Of a stretch of 64,000 nucleotides of DNA, positions 14,408-38,646 are shown piece by piece (position 1 is the stretch's first letter; each line of letters starts with the position of its first letter). This stretch comes from Terriglobia bacterium (GTDB taxonomy: Bacteria; Acidobacteriota; Terriglobia; 20CM-2-55-15): positions 256,001 to 320,000 of the forward strand of contig CBDAOY010000005.1 of NCBI GenBank assembly GCA_965198225.1, written 5' to 3'. A model generated the notes under the pieces. That model did not search any database. It was not told the DNA's origin and was given only the letters and a program-made list of their open reading frames with translations. Position numbers and translations under genes: made by a program.

Positions 14408-14522
14408 TAGCCACGGATTGCACGGATTTAGCGGATTTCTTTCGGACAACGGACCACAGTATTCTTCCTATCCGTGTAATCCGTGAAATCCGTGGCGGTC
14501 TTTGTCCGAGCAATCCGTGGTT
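14408..14522. repeat. Family B palindromic repeat downstream of the split GxxExxY gene
   Basis: agccacggattgcacggatttagcggattt...atccgtgtaatccgtgaaatccgtggc plus an extra arm aatccgtggtt; direct repeat of 15864-15943. Confidence 0.85.
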
Positions 14523-15817
14523 TACCGGATCAATCTTTTCCACGTCAGGCTCTCCTCACCGAAATTGACCACGAGTCCGATCGGCACGGCCCGGGCTTTC
14601 ATGTAGGAAAGGGCCTGCGCAATATGCACATTGTGAATCCCGCTGACCGCCTTTAGTTCGACGATTACCTCGTCATTGACGATGACATCCAGCCGGTGTT
14701 TGCCGACTAGCCCGGGGCGTTTTCGGGTTAACACTAATGAGCATGAATGTTTTACGAATCATTCGGCGTGTGGAGGAGATCACACAGGAGCAGTCGGTTG
14801 TCGCATCGAGCCGGAACTGCCGCGTCATAAGGGCGGGGCAACGTCAGTCTTTCGAACCTGCGGACGGTCTTGAACGCCATTTTCAGACGGTATGGTGGCT
14901 GAGCAGGGCTGCAAGTGGCGCGGTCTGCCCAAGCGCTTTGGCAACTGTCCGCACCACCATCTACACCCGGATGAACCTCATACAAAGCTGGTGATGAAGA
15001 ACGGGGTGCTCGACGCCGTCTTCGAAAAACTCCAGCGCGAGCAACTGGTGCGCATCCGGGTGGAAGCCGTTTCGATGGACTCGACCATTGTGAAGGTCCG
15101 CATCCCGACGGCACAGGAGCGTTAAAAAAAACGGTCCGGTGGCAAGCGATCGGCAACCATCCCGCGGAGGATGGACCACCAAGATTCATCGGATGGTTGC
15201 CGCGAATGCTCGAACGGCGATAACGTTTGCACCTCTCGCCCGGACCTCCTAACCAAGCGCACGACGCCCCGCAGGGCCGCGAGCTGCTCGCCGGCCTGGG
15301 GCCGTTGCCCGCGCCGCTGCCGCTGCCTGATGGACCGTGCCTACCAGGACGACCAGACCCGCCAATTGGCTCTGGATTTTGGGTGGATTCCCGTCGTGCC
15401 GCAGCCAAGCGCAACCGCTTGGAGCCACCGGGAATACGACCGCGTTCTCTACCGCCGCAGGAACGAAGTCGAGAGGCGTGGTCTTCCGCCGACTCAAAGG
15501 TTTCCGGCGTCTCACGCGGTTTGGACAAAGTCCGTGAAATTATTCTCATAAGGGCCGCTTCGATAAACTCGACGTCATGTTCCTCGCCTTCCTTCACTTC
15601 GCTCTCATCGTCGAGGCACTACGTTAGTGTTAACACGCCCTAGCTGGCCTTTATAAGCGACTCGTACTTCCGATTCGGTGGTTCTCGATAGGCCTCGAAG
15701 GCCCAGTTCGTGAAGGAAGGCTTTCCTGTAGATGGTTTCCAGGAAGCCGGGGCCCAACACACGATGGACTTCCATGGCGGCGCCGATAATGGTGCGGGTG
15801 AGTCTCTCCGATCGCAT
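14522..15817 (-). pseudogene. GxxExxY protein gene interrupted by an IS5-family element
   Basis: The 5' half MRSERLTRTIIGAAMEVHRVLGPGFLETIY...YKGQL and the 3' half VGKHRLDVIVNDEVIVELKAV...NFGEESL join in frame across CTAG. Confidence 0.9.
14707..15643 (+). mobile_element. IS5-family (IS427-like) insertion sequence, heavily frameshifted
   Basis: Fragments VAEQGCKWRGLPKRFGN, MDSTIVKV, AHDAPQGRELL and YRRRNEVER; A-run at about 15124. Right IR is ttagtgttaacacgccc, left IR is the degenerate ggcgt...gttaacactaa; CTAG at both ends. Confidence 0.85.
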
Positions 15818-15840
15818 GATCTCGCCGGAGCATTTCGCGT

Positions 15841-15968
15841 GCCACGGATTGCACGGAGGAATCTAGCCACGGATTACACGGATTTAGCGGATTTCTTTCG
15901 GACAGCAGGCCCCAGTATTCTTCCTATCCGTGAAATCCGTGGCTTGTTCTATGTGTGTAATCCGTGGA
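15841..15968. repeat. Family B palindromic repeat upstream of the split GxxExxY gene
   Basis: gccacggattgcacggag...agccacggattacacggatttagcggattt...atccgtgaaatccgtggc...taatccgtggat, ending next to the lysS stop. Confidence 0.85.
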
Positions 15969-17478: not shown

Positions 17479-17562
17479 TAACCACGGAGGCACAGAGGCA
17501 CGGAACGAATTTTGTGTCCGAGCTGAAATCAAAAACTCCGTGTCTCCGCGCCTCCGTGGTTA
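17479..17562. repeat. Family A GxxExxY-type empty inverted repeat
   Basis: taaccacggaggcacagaggcacgga...ctccgtgtctccgcgcctccgtggtta; the right end overlaps the nusB TAA. Confidence 0.9.
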
Positions 17563-19263: not shown

Positions 19264-19338
19264 TAACCACGGAGGCGCGGAGACACGGAGTTGATTAGAC
19301 CTCATGGGTTTCTCCGTGCCTCTGTGCCTCCGTGGTTA
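19264..19338. repeat. Family A empty inverted repeat
   Basis: taaccacggaggcgcggagacacggag...ctccgtgcctctgtgcctccgtggtta. Confidence 0.9.
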
Positions 19339-21555: not shown

Positions 21556-21739
21556 TGACGACGGAGGCTCGGAGACACGGACATCTTTGTCTTTCGCCGA
21601 GCGTAGAGGCCCGTGAGAGAACCAATGTGAGGGGGACACGGCCTGGCCCTGTCCCCGGGTTTTCGCCACGCAGAAAAGTCGGTGAGCGATGCCACCTGCC
21701 CATCGCAAGATCTCCGTGCCTCTGTGCCTCCGTGGTTCA
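21556..21739. repeat. Family A inverted repeat enclosing a family D hairpin
   Basis: acggaggctcggagacacgga...[gggggacacggcctggccctgtccccggg]...ctccgtgcctctgtgcctccgtggtt. Confidence 0.8.
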
Positions 21740-22760: not shown

Positions 22761-22842
22761 TTAACCACGGAGGCGCGGAGGCACGGAGATTGCCAAGAGA
22801 CATCGGCAACAAGACATCCCTCCTCCGTGTCTCCGTGGTCAA
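22761..22842. repeat. Family A empty inverted repeat
   Basis: ttaaccacggaggcgcggaggcacggag...ctccgtgtctccgtggtcaa. Confidence 0.85.
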
Positions 22843-29242: not shown

Positions 29243-29336
29243 TTAACCACAGAGGCACGAAGGCACAGACGTTTCTGGTCTGTGTGGAAGTGTATCCCGA
29301 TACAAATCCTCCGTGCCTCGGCGCCTCCGTGGTTCA
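29243..29336. repeat. Family A empty inverted repeat
   Basis: ttaaccacagaggcacgaaggcacaga...ctccgtgcctcggcgcctccgtggtt. Confidence 0.85.
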
Positions 29337-31952: not shown

Positions 31953-31989
31953 GAAAATCGCATGTCGCTGAATTCAATGGGTCATCGAA

Positions 31990-32005
31990 TGGTACCCGAC
32001 GTGAA
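31990..32005 (+). promoter_or_regulatory. Candidate sigma54 -24/-12 promoter
   Basis: TGGTAC-CCGAC-GTGAA has the right spacing but GA instead of GC at -12; about 45 nt upstream of the first precursor. Confidence 0.35.
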
Positions 32006-32048
32006 CTTAAACGTGACAATCCCGGCCCCGAAAAGGGAGGAAGAAACG

Positions 32049-32234
32049 ATGACAATAAAGGTCCACGCTCTTTCCGAGGCGGAGCTGCTGGCGACGTCCG
32101 GAGGAGACTGGGATTGGGGTGATTTCCTGGATGGCCTCACCTACGGTCTCGGCGTTGGGTGTTTTTGGAGCGGGGGCAATCCTTTCCTCTGCGGCGGTAC
32201 ACTCGTCGCGGGTGGAATCGGCTTGTACCTGTAG
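32049..32234 (+). CDS. Double-glycine leader peptide precursor A
   Basis: GGGAGG RBS; MTIKVHALSEAELLATSGG|DWDWGDFLDGLTYGLGVGCFWSGGNPFLCGGTLVAGGIGLYL. Confidence 0.85.
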   Translation: MTIKVHALSEAELLATSGGDWDWGDFLDGLTYGLGVGCFWSGGNPFLCGGTLVAGGIGLYL

Positions 32235-32244
32235 GAGGAAATAA

Positions 32245-32424
32245 ATGAAAATCCAAGACCTCTCACAGACAGAATTGATGGAGATCGGTGGCGGTGACTG
32301 GTTCGAGACGACCGCCGGCATCATGCTCGGAACCGCCTTCGCCGCCGGATTCCTGGGTTCGGGCGGGCTACTCGGTGTCGCTGCTGCGGCCGGGGCCGCT
32401 CTTGTCATGGAGGACTATCTCTAA
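32245..32424 (+). CDS. Double-glycine leader peptide precursor B (59 aa, not in the ORF track)
   Basis: AGGAGG RBS; MKIQDLSQTELMEIGGG|DWFETTAGIMLGTAFAAGFLGSGGLLGVAAAAGAALVMEDYL. Confidence 0.85.
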   Translation: MKIQDLSQTELMEIGGGDWFETTAGIMLGTAFAAGFLGSGGLLGVAAAAGAALVMEDYL

Positions 32425-32473: not shown

Positions 32474-33214
32474 ATGGACGTTTTTCAACTCGAAGAGGTC
32501 ACCAAAGACCGTGGGGACGACTTCACGCTCGGACCGCTGAGCCTTCATATGTCGCCAGGAGAGATCCTCGGTGTGATGGGGCCGAACGGGGCCGGTAAAA
32601 CGACTCTGCTGAGAATGCTCTGGGGCTTCCTCCGTCCCGACGCGGGACGGATATCTGTCTTCGGTCGGTCGCCGCACCTGGAACAGGTCTGGGTTCGACT
32701 CCGAGCAGGCTATTTGTCGGAAGCTCCCGAGTTCTACGGGTGGATGACCGGCAGACGCTTCCTTTCGTTTATCGCGGGATTCTATCCAAGCTGGGATTGG
32801 AGGCGCGCCGACCGGCTGCTCGAGGACTTCGAGTTGGACGGCGGGAAGAAGGTGGGGGAACTGTCGAAGGGCAACCGGATCAAGCTCGGCCTGATCGCAG
32901 CTATCGCACACCGGCCGCAATTGCTGATTCTGGACGAACCGACATCCGGCCTGGACCCAGTCATCCGAATTGACATATTGGAGTTCTTACGCACGCTGTC
33001 GCGGGATGACGGCACCGGCGTCGTCATGTCCTCACACGTGTCGGACGATCTAGACCGCATCGCTGACTCCGTATTGATGCTGAATGGAGGACGGGTTGTC
33101 GAGTACGCTCCCGCGGCGGTCCTGTTAGACAGGTACGACAAATGCCAGCTGGAGGAAGTGTTCCTACATGCAATCGGTCGGGTTTCCACGACTCGCGCTG
33201 CACATCGCGCGTAA
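32474..33214 (+). CDS. ABC transporter ATP-binding protein (possible immunity)
   Basis: GPNGAGKTT, LSKG and LDEPTSGLDP motifs; start MDVFQL. Confidence 0.85.
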   Translation: MDVFQLEEVTKDRGDDFTLGPLSLHMSPGEILGVMGPNGAGKTTLLRMLWGFLRPDAGRISVFGRSPHLEQVWVRLRAGYLSEAPEFYGWMTGRRFLSFIAGFYPSWDWRRADRLLEDFELDGGKKVGELSKGNRIKLGLIAAIAHRPQLLILDEPTSGLDPVIRIDILEFLRTLSRDDGTGVVMSSHVSDDLDRIADSVLMLNGGRVVEYAPAAVLLDRYDKCQLEEVFLHAIGRVSTTRAAHRA

Positions 33215-33809
33215 GGACTGGGGCGAGTCCAGGAAACTGATCCTGACTCTAACCGCGGCCTTGCTCGTCCCCGCTCTACTGGTCCGTTTATTTCCAGGCC
33301 GATCCGAAGACTTCGCCAAAGGTCTGCTCGCCGGCCTGCTCGCCGGCGCCGGCTTCGGCTATGCCCAGTACTGCTTCCTCAACGAACGCCTCCGGAATAC
33401 ACTGGATCTTCTACTGAGCCTGCCGATTGAACCCCGCGACCTTGTGCTTGCCAAATACGTCTCGCTCTACTCGATGGTTCTCTTCACGGTAAACATCCCG
33501 GCCCTCTTCATCTCCAACCTCCAACTCATCTTCATCGTCAACGCCGCTGCTCTGTCCCTGGCAACACTGTTCATGGCCACCACCGTCATCTCCGACAAAC
33601 CCTGGGCCGCCCAGATCCCGATTTATCTGCTCCTGGTTTTTATCCTCCCCTCTGAACGCCTCCTCAACCGTTACTACCCTTCCGGCCTCGACCTCTTCCG
33701 CACCCTCACATCCCACCCCCTCCTCCTCGCCACCCTGGCCCTGCTCCTGACCCCCGCCCTGATCGCTGGATCGACGTTTTTTTTCACCACGGAGGCGCGG
33801 AAGCACTGA
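33168..33809 (+). CDS. ABC-2-type membrane permease (possible immunity)
   Basis: About six TM segments and an ERLRNTLDLLLSLPIEPRDLVLAKY ABC-2 motif. Confidence 0.75.
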   Translation: MQSVGFPRLALHIARKDWGESRKLILTLTAALLVPALLVRLFPGRSEDFAKGLLAGLLAGAGFGYAQYCFLNERLRNTLDLLLSLPIEPRDLVLAKYVSLYSMVLFTVNIPALFISNLQLIFIVNAAALSLATLFMATTVISDKPWAAQIPIYLLLVFILPSERLLNRYYPSGLDLFRTLTSHPLLLATLALLLTPALIAGSTFFFTTEARKH

Positions 33810-34216
33810 GGTGAGGTTTCATCCGGTGACCCGACAGGTTATCGGTGCTGCGATCGAGGTTCACAAGGCCATGGGTTCGGGTTTGTTGGAGTCCATCTAC
33901 CAAGAATGCCTCGAAGTCGAACTACGATTAAGGCGTGTCCGTTTCGAGCGCCAGAAGACGATCCCCTTGACATACAAAGGCGTGGAGGTTGGGGCGGCGC
34001 TCAGACTGGACCTACTTGTTGGAAACACGGTCATCGTGGAGATCAAAGCGGTCGAATCGATAACACCGGTGCATGAAGCTCAGTTAGTAACCTACCTACG
34101 GCTCACGGGCTGCTCTGTGGGCCTTTTGATCAACTTCAACGTGGAGGTACTTCGGAAGGGGGTCAAACGCATGATCAACTACAGGTAGCTCCGCGCCTCT
34201 GTGCCTCCGTGGTTAA
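33784..34216 (+). mobile_element. Candidate autonomous GxxExxY element (family A arms enclosing the gene)
   Basis: Left arm caccacggaggcgcggaagcactgag abuts the GTG start; right arm ctccgcgcctctgtgcctccgtggttaa abuts the TAG stop. Confidence 0.6.
33811..34188 (+). CDS. GxxExxY protein (PD-(D/E)XK nuclease superfamily)
   Basis: IGAAIEVHKAMGSGLLESIY, RLDLLV, IVEIKAV, QLVTYL and GLLINFN motifs. Confidence 0.92.
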   Translation: MRFHPVTRQVIGAAIEVHKAMGSGLLESIYQECLEVELRLRRVRFERQKTIPLTYKGVEVGAALRLDLLVGNTVIVEIKAVESITPVHEAQLVTYLRLTGCSVGLLINFNVEVLRKGVKRMINYR

Positions 34217-34341
34217 CAAAAACTTCGTGTTCTTCGTGCCTTCGTGTTCAAAAAAATCGTCCCAACACGGACCATTTTCGAATCAGGCCAACCCATTTCA
34301 GTCAGTTGCGTTGTTGGAACCCCATTTGCCTCAATGTGGGG

Positions 34342-35595
34342 GTGCGGTACCCAATCGTCCACCAACACGACTCCAACGACCGCGGGCCGGCATGCCTGTC
34401 AATGGTCGCCGCCTACTACGGCGAACGTCAGTCCATCGCCCGTCTTCGGGAGCGATCCGGAACAGATCGTCAGGGCACCAACCTTGCCGGGCTGATCCAG
34501 GCGGCTGAAGACATCGGCCTCCAGGCGCGAGGCGTCCGGACCGACATGGACGGGCTCGACGAATTAGGCTTGCCCGCGATCGCACACTGGTCCGAAGATG
34601 GCCGAAACCACTTCGTCGTGTTGTTCAAAAAGTCCCGACGCAAGGCAACGATCGGTGATCCCGCGCTCGGCCGCAGAAGGCTCCCCGTCGACGAATTCCA
34701 GAAACACTGGACCGGCGTGCTTGGCCTCCTCAAGCCGACTCCCGACCTGAAAGGTCTCTCCGAGACTTCCTATACGAAACTCTGGTCTCTACTACGGCAT
34801 CACAGGAAGATCTTCCTGGATGCCCTGCTCGCGGCAGTCCTGATGACCGTCCTCGGCCTCTCCTCGTCTTTCTTCATCCAAGCCCTCGTCGACTTCGTGT
34901 TCGTCATCGGACGCGAACCCACCCTGAACTGGCTCGGCCTGGGCATGCTGCTCGTGCTTCTGGCGCGCGTAGCATTCCTCGGACTCCGGGCCTATCTACT
35001 GGCTCACCTCAGCCAGAGGATCGATGCAGATGTGATTCTGGGTTACCACCACCATCTGCTGGGGCTGCCGCTCTCCTTCTTCGAGTCACGCCGCACCGGA
35101 GAGATTCTCTCTCGCCTGAACGACGCGACAAAAATTCGTTCGGCCGTCAGCGGGACAGGCCTTGCCGTAATCGTGGACTCTATGATGCTGGCTTTGACCG
35201 CCTCTGTCATGTTCTGGATGCACTGGAAGCTGGCGCTTCTATCGCTCTCGTTGATGCCGGCAATGGTAGCTACGGTCTGGGGTCTGACCGGACCGATGAA
35301 ACGCGCGCAACGGACGGCGATGGAGCGCGCCGCCGGTTTCGAATCCCACCTGGTCGAGGCCATCGGAGCCATGCCTACCGTCAAAGCCTTCTGCGCGGAA
35401 GACAGGCTGCGGGTCCGGGGCGAGGCACGACTGATGGAAACGATCGACGCCGGCTTTCGCGCCCAGATGTTTGCCCTGCATTCATCGACGACGACCGCAC
35501 TGCTGGCTGGAGCTTCGGGTCTCGGCCTGCTCTGGTTCGGTGGACACGAAGTTCTGGCAGGGCGGTTAACCGTCGGGCAACTGATGGCCCTATAG
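34342..35595 (+). pseudogene. Peptidase C39-containing ABC transporter (PCAT), 5' part
   Basis: QHDSNDRGPACLSM, HFVVL and IGDPA, then TM domain FFESRRTGEILSRLND; stops at LTVGQLMAL with no nucleotide-binding domain. Confidence 0.85.
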
Positions 35596-35862: not shown

Positions 35863-36294
35863 TCAAGAGAGTTGAGGGAGGATGGTGAAGCCTTCGTTGC
35901 GGGCGGCCTGAAGTAGTCTGGAATCAAGGCAGACGAAGTCGAGTCCCCGGGGCTGGTTGCCGCTCCCGAAGATCGAAGCTGCCAGTTGAAGGGAGTCGGC
36001 GGCTCGCAGCGGATGCAGGAGCACCGATCGGCTGGCCCCGTCGCGGATCCGCTCGCTCGGCACAAGTTCGACCCACGAGGCTCTTAACCCTTCGAGTACT
36101 GCGCGCGCCTCATCTTCGTCCTGCCGGGTGAATACCCCTTCTCTGCGAATCCGGGCGAACGCCGAGTGGCATTCAACTACGGTTCCCCACCAGACCACGA
36201 TCACCGGGTCGTCAGTAGCGATCCGTTCCAGAAGGGCAGTCCGGGGTTCTTCAAGGCAGAGAGGAATGATTGCGGAAGCGTCCCAGAACTTCAT
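35863..36294 (-). CDS. VapC PIN-domain toxin
   Basis: MKFWDASA, LRAADSLQLA and FVCLDSRL..AARNEGF motifs. Confidence 0.88.
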   Translation of the reverse strand: MKFWDASAIIPLCLEEPRTALLERIATDDPVIVVWWGTVVECHSAFARIRREGVFTRQDEDEARAVLEGLRASWVELVPSERIRDGASRSVLLHPLRAADSLQLAASIFGSGNQPRGLDFVCLDSRLLQAARNEGFTILPQLS

Positions 36295-36584
36295 CGCCCC
36301 TCGGCCCGTTCGTCTTCCAATGCTTTGAGGGCGGCTCCCGCTTCATCGAAGGGGCGCCGCATCTTCCAGAGGCTCTTAGGCAACTTGCAGGTACCAACAC
36401 GTGCCAGGCCTAAACTCGCCAGCTCAGTCAAATGAGGTGAGAGTCTGGCGTCCCCCTGTGGGAACGGTATGATCTTCGCGATCGGTTTGCCGCGCTCCGT
36501 TACGACGACCTCCTGGCCTGCTTTGACCTGTGCCAGGAATTCGCTGAGCGTCGCTTTTAGCTTGGATACGGTTGTGGTCGACAT
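36291..36584 (-). CDS. Phd/YefM-family antitoxin
   Basis: VSKLKATLSEFLAQVKAGQEVVVTERGKPIAKI; ATGA overlap with the toxin. Confidence 0.88.
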   Translation of the reverse strand: MSTTTVSKLKATLSEFLAQVKAGQEVVVTERGKPIAKIIPFPQGDARLSPHLTELASLGLARVGTCKLPKSLWKMRRPFDEAGAALKALEDERAEGR

Positions 36585-36632: not shown

Positions 36633-37853
36633 TCAAGGCTCTGGGTTCGTGACAGAGGTGTGGCGGCCCGGCTCCGACGCTTGTACGTTCCTGAACTTGC
36701 TGAACAAGAGCGACAACAGACTCTCCGTCCGTATAGTGAAACGAACCTCCAGAGCCAGGCCCAGGGGGAGATCCTGGGCCTCGTCAAAGTCAATCAGAAC
36801 ACGGTAGGCTCCGGAGCCTGGGTCTCCGATCCGGGCGTCGGGAGCGATGGAGAGAACGGTTCCCCCGAGACTTTCCGGGCCAGTCATGACGAGCCGGACC
36901 TGTTGCCCCGGGCACACGTTTTCGGCCTCCCGGTTCGGGAGCCAGGATTCGATCACCTGGACCGTCGGCGTGCGTGCCATCGTCGCTACGAGCGTTCCTG
37001 CGGGAAGGTGTTCGCCTGAGTGGAGGGCGGCGAATGAAACCAGCGTTCCGGTCACCGGGCTCCGGATGATCAACCGTTGCCGGTCCGTTTCGGCACGGTC
37101 TACCCGGAGCCTGAGGTCGGCGAGCTGTTTCTCGATCGGGATCTGTTCGCTCCCAAGCTGTCGTTGGCGGCCTTTGAACTGTGAACGTTTGAGAACGCGG
37201 GCTTGACGAAGGTCCTCGAGAACCGCCTCTTCAGGTGGGCGAGCTTCGATTTCCTCCTTTTGGGCTCTGGCCAGTCGGAGTGCTCGCTCGACCTCGGACT
37301 GGGATTGTTGAGATACGACGCCTTCCTCGAGCAGTTGTCGGTTCATCTCGCGTCGCTCCAGGGCGTCCGATATGCGCAGCTCGGCGGCGTGCAACTGGAT
37401 CTGATGTTCCTGGCGCCGTCGCTTGATCGCTTCCCTCTCGGCCTGAATCTGGAGCTCCAGCCGCTGCATTTCCAGGTCGAACACGTGCCTCGCGTCAGCC
37501 TTCCTGAGGCCTGTTTCGCGGAGTTGTTCTTCTACGAGGAGGATCTGCTCCTGGAGCGTTTGGATCTGCGATCGGGTCTCTCGGTCTTCGAGCCGGACGA
37601 GAATGTCACCGGCCCTGACGTGATCACGTTCTCTGCCAGAGACGGCGGCTATGATCCCGGCAACTTCCGTGACGATCCGGACGACTCCACCTTCAGGTCG
37701 CACGACACCGAGTGCGCGAACGGTAACGTCGATCTTCGTGAAGTGCGCCCAGAGTGTCGCGAGGGCCAGGATGCCTGCCAGCATGTACAGGGTTGCACCC
37801 AGGAGGGACGGGGATCGTCCCAGGTTGAGGTCAGGCCCCGAGCGCGTACGCAC
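36633..37853 (-). CDS. HlyD-family membrane fusion protein
   Basis: N-terminal TM, GDILVRL, long coiled coil and IRSPVTG; overlaps the end of the PCAT 3' part. Confidence 0.85.
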   Translation of the reverse strand: MRTRSGPDLNLGRSPSLLGATLYMLAGILALATLWAHFTKIDVTVRALGVVRPEGGVVRIVTEVAGIIAAVSGRERDHVRAGDILVRLEDRETRSQIQTLQEQILLVEEQLRETGLRKADARHVFDLEMQRLELQIQAEREAIKRRRQEHQIQLHAAELRISDALERREMNRQLLEEGVVSQQSQSEVERALRLARAQKEEIEARPPEEAVLEDLRQARVLKRSQFKGRQRQLGSEQIPIEKQLADLRLRVDRAETDRQRLIIRSPVTGTLVSFAALHSGEHLPAGTLVATMARTPTVQVIESWLPNREAENVCPGQQVRLVMTGPESLGGTVLSIAPDARIGDPGSGAYRVLIDFDEAQDLPLGLALEVRFTIRTESLLSLLFSKFRNVQASEPGRHTSVTNPEP

Positions 37854-38646
37854 GTTCCTCGATGTGGAAGGTCCGGTCGATGGGCAGAGGCTCGTGGGAG
37901 ATCACGAGCGTCGTCCGGTGTCCGCGGCGCCGTTCGATCAGGCTGCGGACGGCGGCTGTCGACGTGCGGTCGAGGTGGTTTGTCGGTTCGTCGAGTACCA
38001 GGATAGGCGGCTCGAGAAGGATCGCGCGCGCCAGGGCGATCCTCTGGCGCTCGCCCCCGGATAGCGTCATGCCGCGCTCGCCGATCACGGTGTCGTACCC
38101 CAGCGGCATCCGGTTGACGATCTCATCGACGTGTGCCAGACGGGCGGCCGTGCGCACCTCCTGTGCATCGGCGGACGGACGACCCAGGCTGACGTTGCCG
38201 GCGATCGAGATACTGAGCAGGTCGGCGTCCTGCGAGACGAAGACCACCTGCCGGCGGAGGTTCTCCAGGTCGTAGTCTCGGACGTCGATCCCGTCGATGA
38301 GAACGCGTCCGGACGACGGTTCAATGAATCGGCCGAGCAGGCGAACAAGCGTTGTCTTCCCGCTTCCGCTTCCACCTGCGATCCCGACGCACTCCCCTGG
38401 TTCGATTCTCATGCAGATGCCCTCGAGAACAGGATGGCGGCTCCCGTACCGGAAGCCCACGTTGCGAAATTCGATCGATCCCGCCAGTCTGCGTTCAACT
38501 GTTGAAGTAGATTTACGCCTCTTCTCGCCTTCGGCCTGAAACATTTCTCCCAGACGTTCAGCAGCGACCATTGCGTCCTGGATCGACTGGTTGGCGTTCG
38601 CCAGCCGCTCGATCGGCCCGAGGGCCGTTCCCAGCATGGTGTAGAA
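37831..38646 (-). pseudogene. PCAT 3' part (last TM plus nucleotide-binding domain), inverted relative to the 5' part
   Basis: FYTMLGTALGPIERL...GGSGSGKTT...LSGGERQRIALARA...LDEPT. Confidence 0.85.

Follow-up and report, generated by a model that had tools for sequence, protein, structure and literature searches.

Proteins of the GxxExxY family are very common in bacteria, and their function is unknown. Free-standing homing endonuclease genes, including those of the PD-(D/E)XK type, are small selfish nuclease genes that lie between host genes, and a cycle of invasion, decay and loss has been proposed for them. In the systems formed by REPINs (hairpin-forming pairs of repetitive extragenic palindromic (REP) sequences) and RAYTs (REP-associated tyrosine transposases), as outlined in the accounts cited here, a short palindromic repeat stands in inverted copies on either side of a low-copy gene and is also dispersed extragenically (10.1101/2022.05.22.493013, 10.1101/2021.07.10.451892, PMC8266576). 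Another element of related shape is the intervening sequence (IVS) of 23S ribosomal RNA (rRNA) that bears an open reading frame (ORF); the outline in PMC4990558 gives it a length of 428-444 nt, a 28-bp terminal stem and excision by RNase III. The IVSs of Leptospira and Coxiella, whose ORF encodes the S23p four-helix bundle, are described there as long suspected of being mobile, with the ORF aiding mobility (PMC4990558). Here, we analysed a GxxExxY gene enclosed by two inverted repeat arms in a 64,000-nt stretch of contig CBDAOY010000005.1 from a Terriglobia bacterium (hereafter the window, to which all plain coordinates refer). The same arms without the gene are the main intergenic hairpin families of this genome. 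We put at roughly 0.45 the probability that we are dealing with one copy of a selfish hairpin cassette of wide distribution, composed of a GxxExxY nuclease gene and its own inverted arms of C-R-C-N-R-A-G-R units, with a REPIN/RAYT-like layout, an IVS-like shape and an inferred nuclease mechanism. A literature search whose coverage stopped short of subscription journals returned no description of this architecture of GxxExxY gene plus arms.

The locus comprises the gene, its two arms and a further arm downstream:

33811..34188, plus strand: GxxExxY protein gene, GTG start at 33811, TAG at 34186-34188, 125 aa, matching PF13366 and TIGR04256
33772..33810: left (purine-type) arm, a T-run followed by CACCACGGAGG CGCGGAAG CACTGAG (inverted-repeat finder)
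34189..34227: right (pyrimidine-type) arm, CTCCGCGC CTCTGTGC CTCCGTGGTTAA followed by an A-run (inverted-repeat finder)
34222..34261: orphan pyrimidine-type arm of another unit type, CTTCGTGT TCTTCGTG CCTTCGTGTT (CTTCGTGTTCTTCGTGCCTTCGTGTT) followed by an A-run (repeat finder)

The arms at 33772-33810 and 34189-34227 measure 39 nt each, are 79% complementary and lie 378 nt apart, which is exactly the GxxExxY ORF. The last base of the left arm directly precedes the GTG and the first base of the right arm directly follows the TAG. Each arm is built from a T- or A-run and about three tandem 8-nt units, CACGGAGG CGCGGAAG CACTGAG and its complement, and the GGAGG/GAGG just 5' of the start codon comes from the purine arm. 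An earlier reading of the window from its sequence only (the sequence-only reading) had placed the gene exactly between two inverted arms that abut its start and stop codons, with an orphan arm of similar periodicity beyond the right arm. The 378-nt spacing and the junctions at 33810/33811 and 34188/34189 bear this out, and the orphan arm is present as a pyrimidine-type arm with an A-run. The repeat finder detected complementarity between its outer flank and the T-run region on the outer side of the left arm; the orphan arm may have been left behind by an earlier cassette.

Profile searches and residue conservation agree on the nature of the protein. The only Pfam match of the ORF was PF13366 (PDDEXK_3; E 9.4e-44, 149 bits against a cut-off of 22), and TIGR04256 (GxxExxY) matched with E 4.9e-45 and 152.6 bits (cut-off 35). 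The motif G24-x-x-E27-x-x-Y30 is present. In an 18-sequence alignment, G24 and Y30 are invariant or nearly so, E27, D67, E77 and K79 are invariant, and the D...ExK catalytic pattern is found. These profile matches and conserved catalytic residues assign the gene to the GxxExxY PD-(D/E)XK family, as the sequence-only reading had done. An AlphaFold2 model of the 125-aa protein (predicted local distance difference test score, pLDDT, 92.6) predicted a restriction-endonuclease-like, PD-(D/E)XK fold. The nearest structures, similar at the level of the fold only, were Cas4 SSO0001 (Z 8.0), BpuSI (7.9) and Hjc (6.6), with HsdR also within 6.6-8.0. No solved structure was matched in a sequence search of the PDB with the protein, Foldseek with the predicted model returned nothing at E <= 0.001, and a PHROGs search with the protein returned none; PADLOC gave only weak matches to Cas4 models (E about 0.003).

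The arms belong to a dispersed repeat, which the sequence-only reading had supposed. Genome-wide, 95 arms share the common consensus TAACCACGGAGGCRCRGAGGCRCGGAG. Within the window, CCACGGAGGC with at most one mismatch has 18 matches, compared with 7.46 on average and never more than 15 in 100 shuffles, and these matches pair in plus/minus orientation at 17482/17559, 19267/19335, 21559/21735, 22765/22838 and 29247/29332 (60-180 nt apart) as well as at 33787/34212. A regular expression for the unit, applied to the 6.4-Mb genome, found 126 arms and 35 plus/minus pairs, 32 of which have loops of 13-185 nt; the loop sequences are unrelated to one another. With a wider seed, 44 paired elements were obtained, in which a mean of 11% of bases fall in called ORFs, versus 82% for the genome; 27 of them lie between co-directional, 12 between convergent and 5 between divergent genes. 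The hairpins occur on 8 of the 9 contigs, between housekeeping genes (in the window, for example, lysS, nusB and ribH). Their flanks, judged by eye, extend the inverted symmetry and do not form direct repeats, and no target duplication was seen by eye, a systematic duplication test not having been run. Besides the pair around the gene, the window contains the following pairs, and its four ORF-less hairpins fold as DNA with z from -3.5 to -7.7:

17479..17562: ORF-less hairpin between lysS and nusB, DNA fold z -5.78
19264..19338: ORF-less hairpin between the enoyl-CoA hydratase and 3-hydroxyacyl-CoA dehydrogenase genes, DNA fold z -7.74
21556..21738: hairpin with a CCACGGAGGC arm pair and a 130-nt loop that holds a second dispersed repeat (..CCGTGAGAGAACC..GGGGGACA..)
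22762..22841: ORF-less hairpin, DNA fold z -4.56
29244..29335: ORF-less hairpin downstream of the UDP-GlcNAc 2-epimerase gene, DNA fold z -3.45

Known classes of element were compared with these hairpins. Intrinsic terminators were rejected on the order of the runs: the stem is preceded by the T-run and followed by the A-run, opposite to what a terminator shows. An integron cassette array (attC) was rejected as well, given that the hairpins are spread over 8 of 9 contigs between housekeeping genes (the integrase was not searched for). A search for the Y1/RAYT transposase (PF01797) gave no match in the 97%-complete genome, and a RAYT was therefore discarded. Rfam, searched over 14000-36000 at E <= 1, reported no hairpin family and only two sub-threshold miRNA-like hairpin matches. 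As a separate observation, the second dispersed repeat, with the core ..CCGYGAGAGAGCCAMTGTGAGGGGGACAGGG..CCCTGTCCCCGGGTGTT.., has about 55 further copies in the genome besides that at window positions 21600-21700, some of them inside octamer-hairpin loops; the window copy had no Rfam match.

A family search showed that the genome holds two GxxExxY genes, both flanked by arms, each of a different type. The second lies in the same window, next to hairpins of its own arm type:

14510..15865 (arms included), minus strand: second GxxExxY gene, split by an insert resembling an insertion sequence (IS); gene at about 14525-15817, with pieces matching at 14528-14707 and 15641-15802
14411..14497: complete short hairpin of the CACGGATTN type beside the second gene, with a similar one at about 15867-15945

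The arms of the second gene are inverted and of the 9-nt CACGGATTN type, with GCAATCCGTGG at about 14510-14522 and CCACGGATTGC at about 15843. The IS-like insert in this gene is about 0.93 kb long (about 14728-15645) and ends in short inverted repeats; no intact transposase ORF was recognised when its longest ORF was scanned against Pfam. Counting arms with at least two homogeneous units yielded 85 of CRCRGAGR, 44 of CACGGATTN, 10 of CRCGAAGR, 3 of CGCAAAGR and 2 of CGCAGAGR. By these strict counts, therefore, the arm types around the two GxxExxY genes are the most numerous ones (85 and 44), and the type of the orphan arm, CRCGAAGR, forms the third population of the genome. The sequence-only reading had likened the unit to RAYT/REP with a different chemistry, and this likeness holds: the two most numerous arm populations are those that stand beside the two genes, the enzyme is of the PD-(D/E)XK type and no Y1 transposase was found in the genome.

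Arms are also enriched around GxxExxY genes of other genomes. Relatives of the window protein were found in at least 543 of 594 candidate stretches. A set of 30 relatives, including the window's own genome, contained 17 genomes with a GxxExxY gene (1-7 matches each), and a phylum sample of 151 genomes contained 52 with GxxExxY at E <= 1e-20. From the own phylum, at most two loci per genome were taken, the unpublished genome G076 was left out, and truncated genes, contig-end cases and four duplicates were dropped, which left 84 loci. An ungapped inverted match of at least 12 was present at 36 of these 84 loci, compared with 0.8% of 1500 long-ORF flanks and 2.8% of 2000 mis-paired flanks. Similarly, a local arm alignment score of at least 30 was reached at 40/84 loci, versus 11/1000 long-ORF flanks and 62/1000 mis-paired flanks. 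A CRC-type tandem arm lay within 80 nt at 53 of the 84 loci (92 of 3673 control long ORFs), and a purine arm upstream together with a pyrimidine arm downstream was found at 24/84 loci and at none of the 3673 long ORFs; the reverse polarity, with a pyrimidine arm upstream, occurred at 1/84. Around GxxExxY genes, the median distance of the inner arm end is 8 nt from the start codon on the upstream side and 4 nt from the stop codon on the downstream side. A 14-of-16 periodicity detector (30/84 loci versus 41/1500 controls) was judged too strict and was replaced.

The same design recurred beyond the phylum. With one genome taken per species, the matches listed provided 80 loci, 78 of them usable, whose record titles name Chloroflexota, Pseudomonadota, Acidobacteriota, Planctomycetota, Desulfobacterota, Verrucomicrobiota, Bacteroidota, Methanothrix and others; of the 8 matches on named plasmid or chromid records, 6 were looked at. 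Among the matches listed, an arm score of at least 30 was obtained at 39/78 loci and, after one duplicate had been dropped, a CRC-type arm at 58/77 and both arms at 21/77. Arms stand on both sides of the GxxExxY gene in Bernardetia (between ade and the mannose-1-phosphate guanylyltransferase gene), Bacteroides finegoldii (between radA and the gene for an FAD protein) and Treponema. The Sphingomonas gene (between fabD and fabG) has the upstream arm only, Gemmatirosa shows a full hairpin just 3' of its gene, and in Prevotella direct repeats take the place of inverted arms. The expectation that GxxExxY flanks are enriched for periodic inverted arms was thus confirmed (53/84 and 58/77 versus 92/3673 controls). 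Some GxxExxY genes that are frameshifted or carry an in-frame stop retain recognisable arms, namely those at L017/L028 (genome G017), L021 (G028) and L014 (G023).

The arms vary together with the protein. Paralogues of one genome carry different arm units in 6 of the 6 genomes sampled that have at least two armed loci. Over 40 armed loci, arm similarity correlated with protein identity (Spearman 0.45), a value reached in 0 of 2000 permutations of a Mantel test, and the mean arm score rose from 5.7 below 40% protein identity to 13.4 at 60-70%. The co-variation of arm and protein for which the sequence-only reading had called is accordingly present, and shared descent alone can yield it.

Inverted tandem-repeat arms also flank genes of the four-helix-bundle family (TIGR02436), the family of the rRNA IVS ORF. 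Both such genes of the window's genome are bracketed in this way:

G000:C8:688908-689228: four-helix-bundle gene between inverted tandem-repeat arms
G000:C6:1039408-1039725: four-helix-bundle gene between inverted tandem-repeat arms

In a phylum sample of 30 four-helix-bundle loci (L126-L155), 19 had an arm score of at least 30. Their arm units are very diverse, and only 2 of the 30 loci have the CRC type. The arm-gene-arm design is therefore wider than the GxxExxY nuclease, since four-helix-bundle genes share it while their arms consist of other repeat units.

We also compared the abundance of arms with the presence of the gene. Two-unit pattern matches numbered 157 in the window's genome, 450 in G002, 403 in G003, 185 in G005 and 213 in G024, and 12 of the 13 relatives without a GxxExxY gene have at most 4; the exception is G001. 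The unit around the gene is the dominant unit of the genome in G003 (CGCAGAGG/A) and in G002 (CGCAGAGA). At least 10 three-unit matches were counted in 27/52 gene-positive and 9/99 gene-negative genomes (odds ratio 10.8, p about 1e-8; hand tallies that include the unpublished G076, over related genomes that are not independent). All 9 gene-negative exceptions have four-helix-bundle genes, in a tally that includes the unpublished G052. G135 holds GxxExxY fragments only.

The host genes on either side of the locus allowed the same site to be followed in relatives:

33168..33809, plus strand: ABC-2 type permease gene, upstream host gene, its final codons inside the left arm
34201..35595, plus strand: C39-peptidase/ABC-membrane exporter ORF, downstream host gene, stopping after 464 aa

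Permease orthologues in relatives likewise end within their own left arms, and comparison with relatives puts the real start of the exporter probably near 34330. A GxxExxY gene occupies the same place after the permease in G002 and G003, of the same genus, and in G005 and G012, of two other genera; at the site of G012 it is a 40-aa remnant only. Between G002 and G003, the permeases are 95% and the exporters 98% identical, whereas the GxxExxY proteins share 57%. At the DNA level, the surroundings are 92-98% identical, and the stretch that begins at the T-run preceding the left arm and extends to the exporter start shows an identity of about 55-60%. The cassette has been replaced wholesale between these sister species: the same site, with flanks 92-98% identical, carries different cassettes. 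Furthermore, the window protein shares 59-61% identity with its closest homologues from other phyla among the matches listed, versus 53-55% with the same-site genes of its own genus. As in the window, an orphan arm of another type follows the right arm in G003. In G006, the permease-exporter junction has an unrelated spacer of about 600 nt, without the gene and without arms, in which no GxxExxY remnant was found even with filters off. The sequence-only reading had looked to relatives for empty sites; a junction without the gene does exist, in G006, and a clean empty site was not among the loci compared.

Orthologous short hairpins of G002 and G003 stand at the same sites and differ by whole-unit insertions or deletions or by concerted changes of unit type. 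Contig joints that link 33811/33812/33815 to 34189 were considered as excision at this locus and rejected: their sides are only 22-28 nt long with other letters between, and they are other hairpin copies in metagenome contigs. Two species-specific inserts were also set aside, a 1.76-kb insert of G002, which is an IS, and a 166-bp insert of G003, which is a miniature inverted-repeat transposable element (MITE) unrelated to the octamer hairpins. The latter, a palindromic MITE-like element at L106:7008-7172 of G003, is absent at the orthologous site of G002, which has at least 30 copies elsewhere with 91-97% identity.

At the RNA level, the minimum free energy and centroid structures predicted for 33765-34235 both close the two arms (-182.5 kcal/mol, z -3.76). 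Among the mismatches of gene-flanking arms, those that give G.U pairs on the sense strand are in excess, 78 to 39 (p 4e-4).

In the mechanism we propose for a selfish cassette, the nuclease would recognise the arm units, or the hairpin or cruciform that they form, and would cut arm-bearing sites. Repair templated by another copy would then convert, replace or fill the cut sites. The process would be homing-like, with the 25-40-nt arms serving as both recognition site and homology, and ORF-less hairpins would be non-autonomous relatives or footprints left after gene loss. When the host operon is transcribed, the arms would pair and the ORF would be looped out, resembling the ORF-bearing 23S rRNA IVS that RNase III excises; such looping out may explain why insertions between operon genes are tolerated.

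Several observations weigh against reading the locus as a selfish cassette. The link between nuclease and arms is correlative, and both arms lie within 80 nt at only about half of the loci. G001, of the window's genus, has 280 two-unit matches and no GxxExxY gene, in an assembly of 4.0 Mb and 230 contigs that also lacks the exporter. No GxxExxY gene was found at E <= 0.001 in G102, G080, G119 and G043, which are 97-100% complete, despite 58, 67, 59 and 38 three-unit matches, respectively; because these four near-complete genomes keep hairpins without it, the gene is not needed for hairpin persistence. At the other end, 25 of the 52 GxxExxY-positive genomes have fewer than 10 matches to the pattern. 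Since the loops are unrelated, the short hairpins are not simple deletion copies of one master, and since hairpins stand at the same sites in G002 and G003, transposition, if any, is slow. No clean empty site was present among the compared loci, and no target duplication was seen. Other cargo occurs between arms as well: CGCAAAGG inverted arms enclose a 604-aa GHKL ATPase ORF (HATPase_c_3, E 1e-11; G000:C9:1250677-1252652, L156), and the second dispersed repeat occupies some hairpin loops. As for the transcript, the sense-strand G.U excess comes mostly from one class (G/A 62:29) and could be a composition effect, and no strand bias was detected in the arm mismatches of 25 short hairpins between co-directional genes, of 41 analysed (34 to 46).

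Some insertion sequences target REP loops. The hairpins described here could be an independent REP-like family, spread or kept by the host or another factor, with GxxExxY a separate selfish gene that invades their loops and takes no part in making or keeping them. We regard this as unlikely, though a serious contender: it accommodates the same-unit hairpin populations of the four near-complete genomes without the gene, the heterogeneous loops, the presence of other cargo (the GHKL ATPase ORF and the second repeat) and the ratio of one intact gene per about 85 arms in the genome. It is harder to reconcile with the occurrence of CRC-type arms at 58/77 GxxExxY loci of many phyla as against 2/30 four-helix-bundle genes of the window's phylum, a difference which indicates that hairpin loops are not a generic landing site. 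Nor does it sit well with the fusion of start and stop codons to the arm ends, or with the 25/52 gene-positive genomes of fewer than 10 matches, many of which have an armed gene and hardly any free hairpins. The co-variation of arm and protein also tells against it, though homing limited by arm homology would give the same. That an ordinary small gene came by chance to lie between unrelated repeats or terminators, in a genome where intergenic hairpins are indeed common, is highly improbable: arms of the CRC type on both sides were found at 0/3673 control ORFs and at 24/84 and 21/77 GxxExxY loci, both GxxExxY genes of the genome are flanked, and the pattern is conserved across phyla.

An account in which the arms act in the transcript only, as an IVS-like stem cut by RNase III or a stem sequestering the ribosome-binding site, would give the nuclease a cellular or defence role and leave its spread to ordinary recombination and gene transfer. 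The size and shape of the unit match those given for the ORF-bearing 23S rRNA IVS (PMC4990558), the predicted RNA fold closes the arms, the GGAGG/GAGG just 5' of the start codon comes from the purine arm, and four-helix-bundle genes, of the IVS-protein family, share the design at 19/30 loci. The 78-to-39 excess of sense-strand G.U pairs in gene-flanking arms points the same way, yet neither the short hairpins (34 to 46) nor the four-helix-bundle arms (38 to 40) show a strand bias in their mismatches, and the T-run 5' and A-run 3' of the stem reverse the order of a terminator. Action in the transcript alone also leaves unexplained the hundreds of ORF-less copies between housekeeping genes that share the arm types of the gene copies, as well as the cassette swap between sister species. 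We therefore judge it distinctly unlikely, and continue to favour, tentatively, a selfish cassette of nuclease gene and arms.

The surroundings of the locus were examined as well. Upstream lie two small ORFs of the double-glycine type, an ABC ATPase gene and the ABC-2 permease gene. The small ORFs, at 31962-32424 ahead of the ABC genes, encode 90 and 59 aa with the motifs ..ATSGGDW.. and ..MEIGGGDW..; neither has a Pfam match, and both are likely bacteriocin precursors. Downstream, the exporter ORF is cut short after its membrane domain, and its ATPase domain is found inverted at 37834-38637. An inverted HlyD-type gene lies at 36636-37853, and an ORF pair at 35866-36584, encoding a Phd/YefM-type antitoxin and a 143-aa partner without a Pfam match, separates the exporter ORF from the inverted HlyD and ATPase parts. 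The unit had been described as lying inside a coherent bacteriocin operon. Its position between the permease and the C39/ABC exporter stands; the operon itself is not fully coherent, because the exporter ORF stops after 464 aa and its ATPase domain is inverted.

If the GxxExxY family is tied to a flanking repeat code of its own, this would provide the first testable function for the family. It would also give gene-plus-dispersed-hairpin systems, of which REPIN-RAYT has been the example so far, a second enzyme chemistry, explain many fast-evolving intergenic hairpins in several phyla, and offer a link to the unresolved origin of rRNA intervening sequences. Short tandem units that co-vary with a 125-aa nuclease would likewise be of interest as a simple, possibly modular, DNA-recognition system. 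A bolder extrapolation, which we consider speculative and improbable in its full extent, is that GxxExxY nucleases are the mobility or maintenance enzymes of pan-bacterial, maybe archaeal, hairpin elements that have neither an HUH nor a DDE transposase. Each lineage would read its own tandem-octamer dialect, drive conversion by break and copy, and leave ORF-less hairpins behind; together with the four-helix-bundle cassettes, such elements would be the source of ORF-bearing rRNA IVSs.

Compared with described systems, the locus combines features of several. Cas4 and RecB-like nucleases are the best remote sequence and structure matches of the GxxExxY protein (Cas4 models of PADLOC, SSO0001), which is about 75 residues shorter, has no CRISPR context and resembles them in general fold only. 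With homing endonuclease genes it shares a patchy distribution and replacement at a fixed site, whereas the presumed target here is a repeated hairpin instead of a unique allele, and the flanking arms travel with the gene. The ORF-bearing 23S rRNA IVS, as its published outline has it, is likewise a unit of about 430-450 nt in which terminal inverted repeats pair over about 28-39 bp and leave an ORF of about 120 aa in the loop, and it too has ORF-less versions; the cassette described here differs in lying between permease and exporter genes and not in a 23S rRNA helix, in encoding a nuclease (PF13366) and not an S23p/four-helix bundle, and in having arms of tandem units with about 100 dispersed copies. 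In contrast to REPIN-RAYT, the enzyme is a 125-aa PD-(D/E)XK nuclease in place of a Y1/HUH transposase, each arm repeats an 8-10-nt unit in tandem where a REP has a single stem, the loops are highly variable, the GxxExxY gene is exchanged between close relatives, and hairpins persist without the gene in some genomes. In line with the available descriptions of REPIN-RAYT, however, inverted copies of a repeat that is dispersed and for the most part extragenic stand on both sides of the GxxExxY gene, the repeat population differs from one gene copy to the next, and the genomic position is kept across genera.

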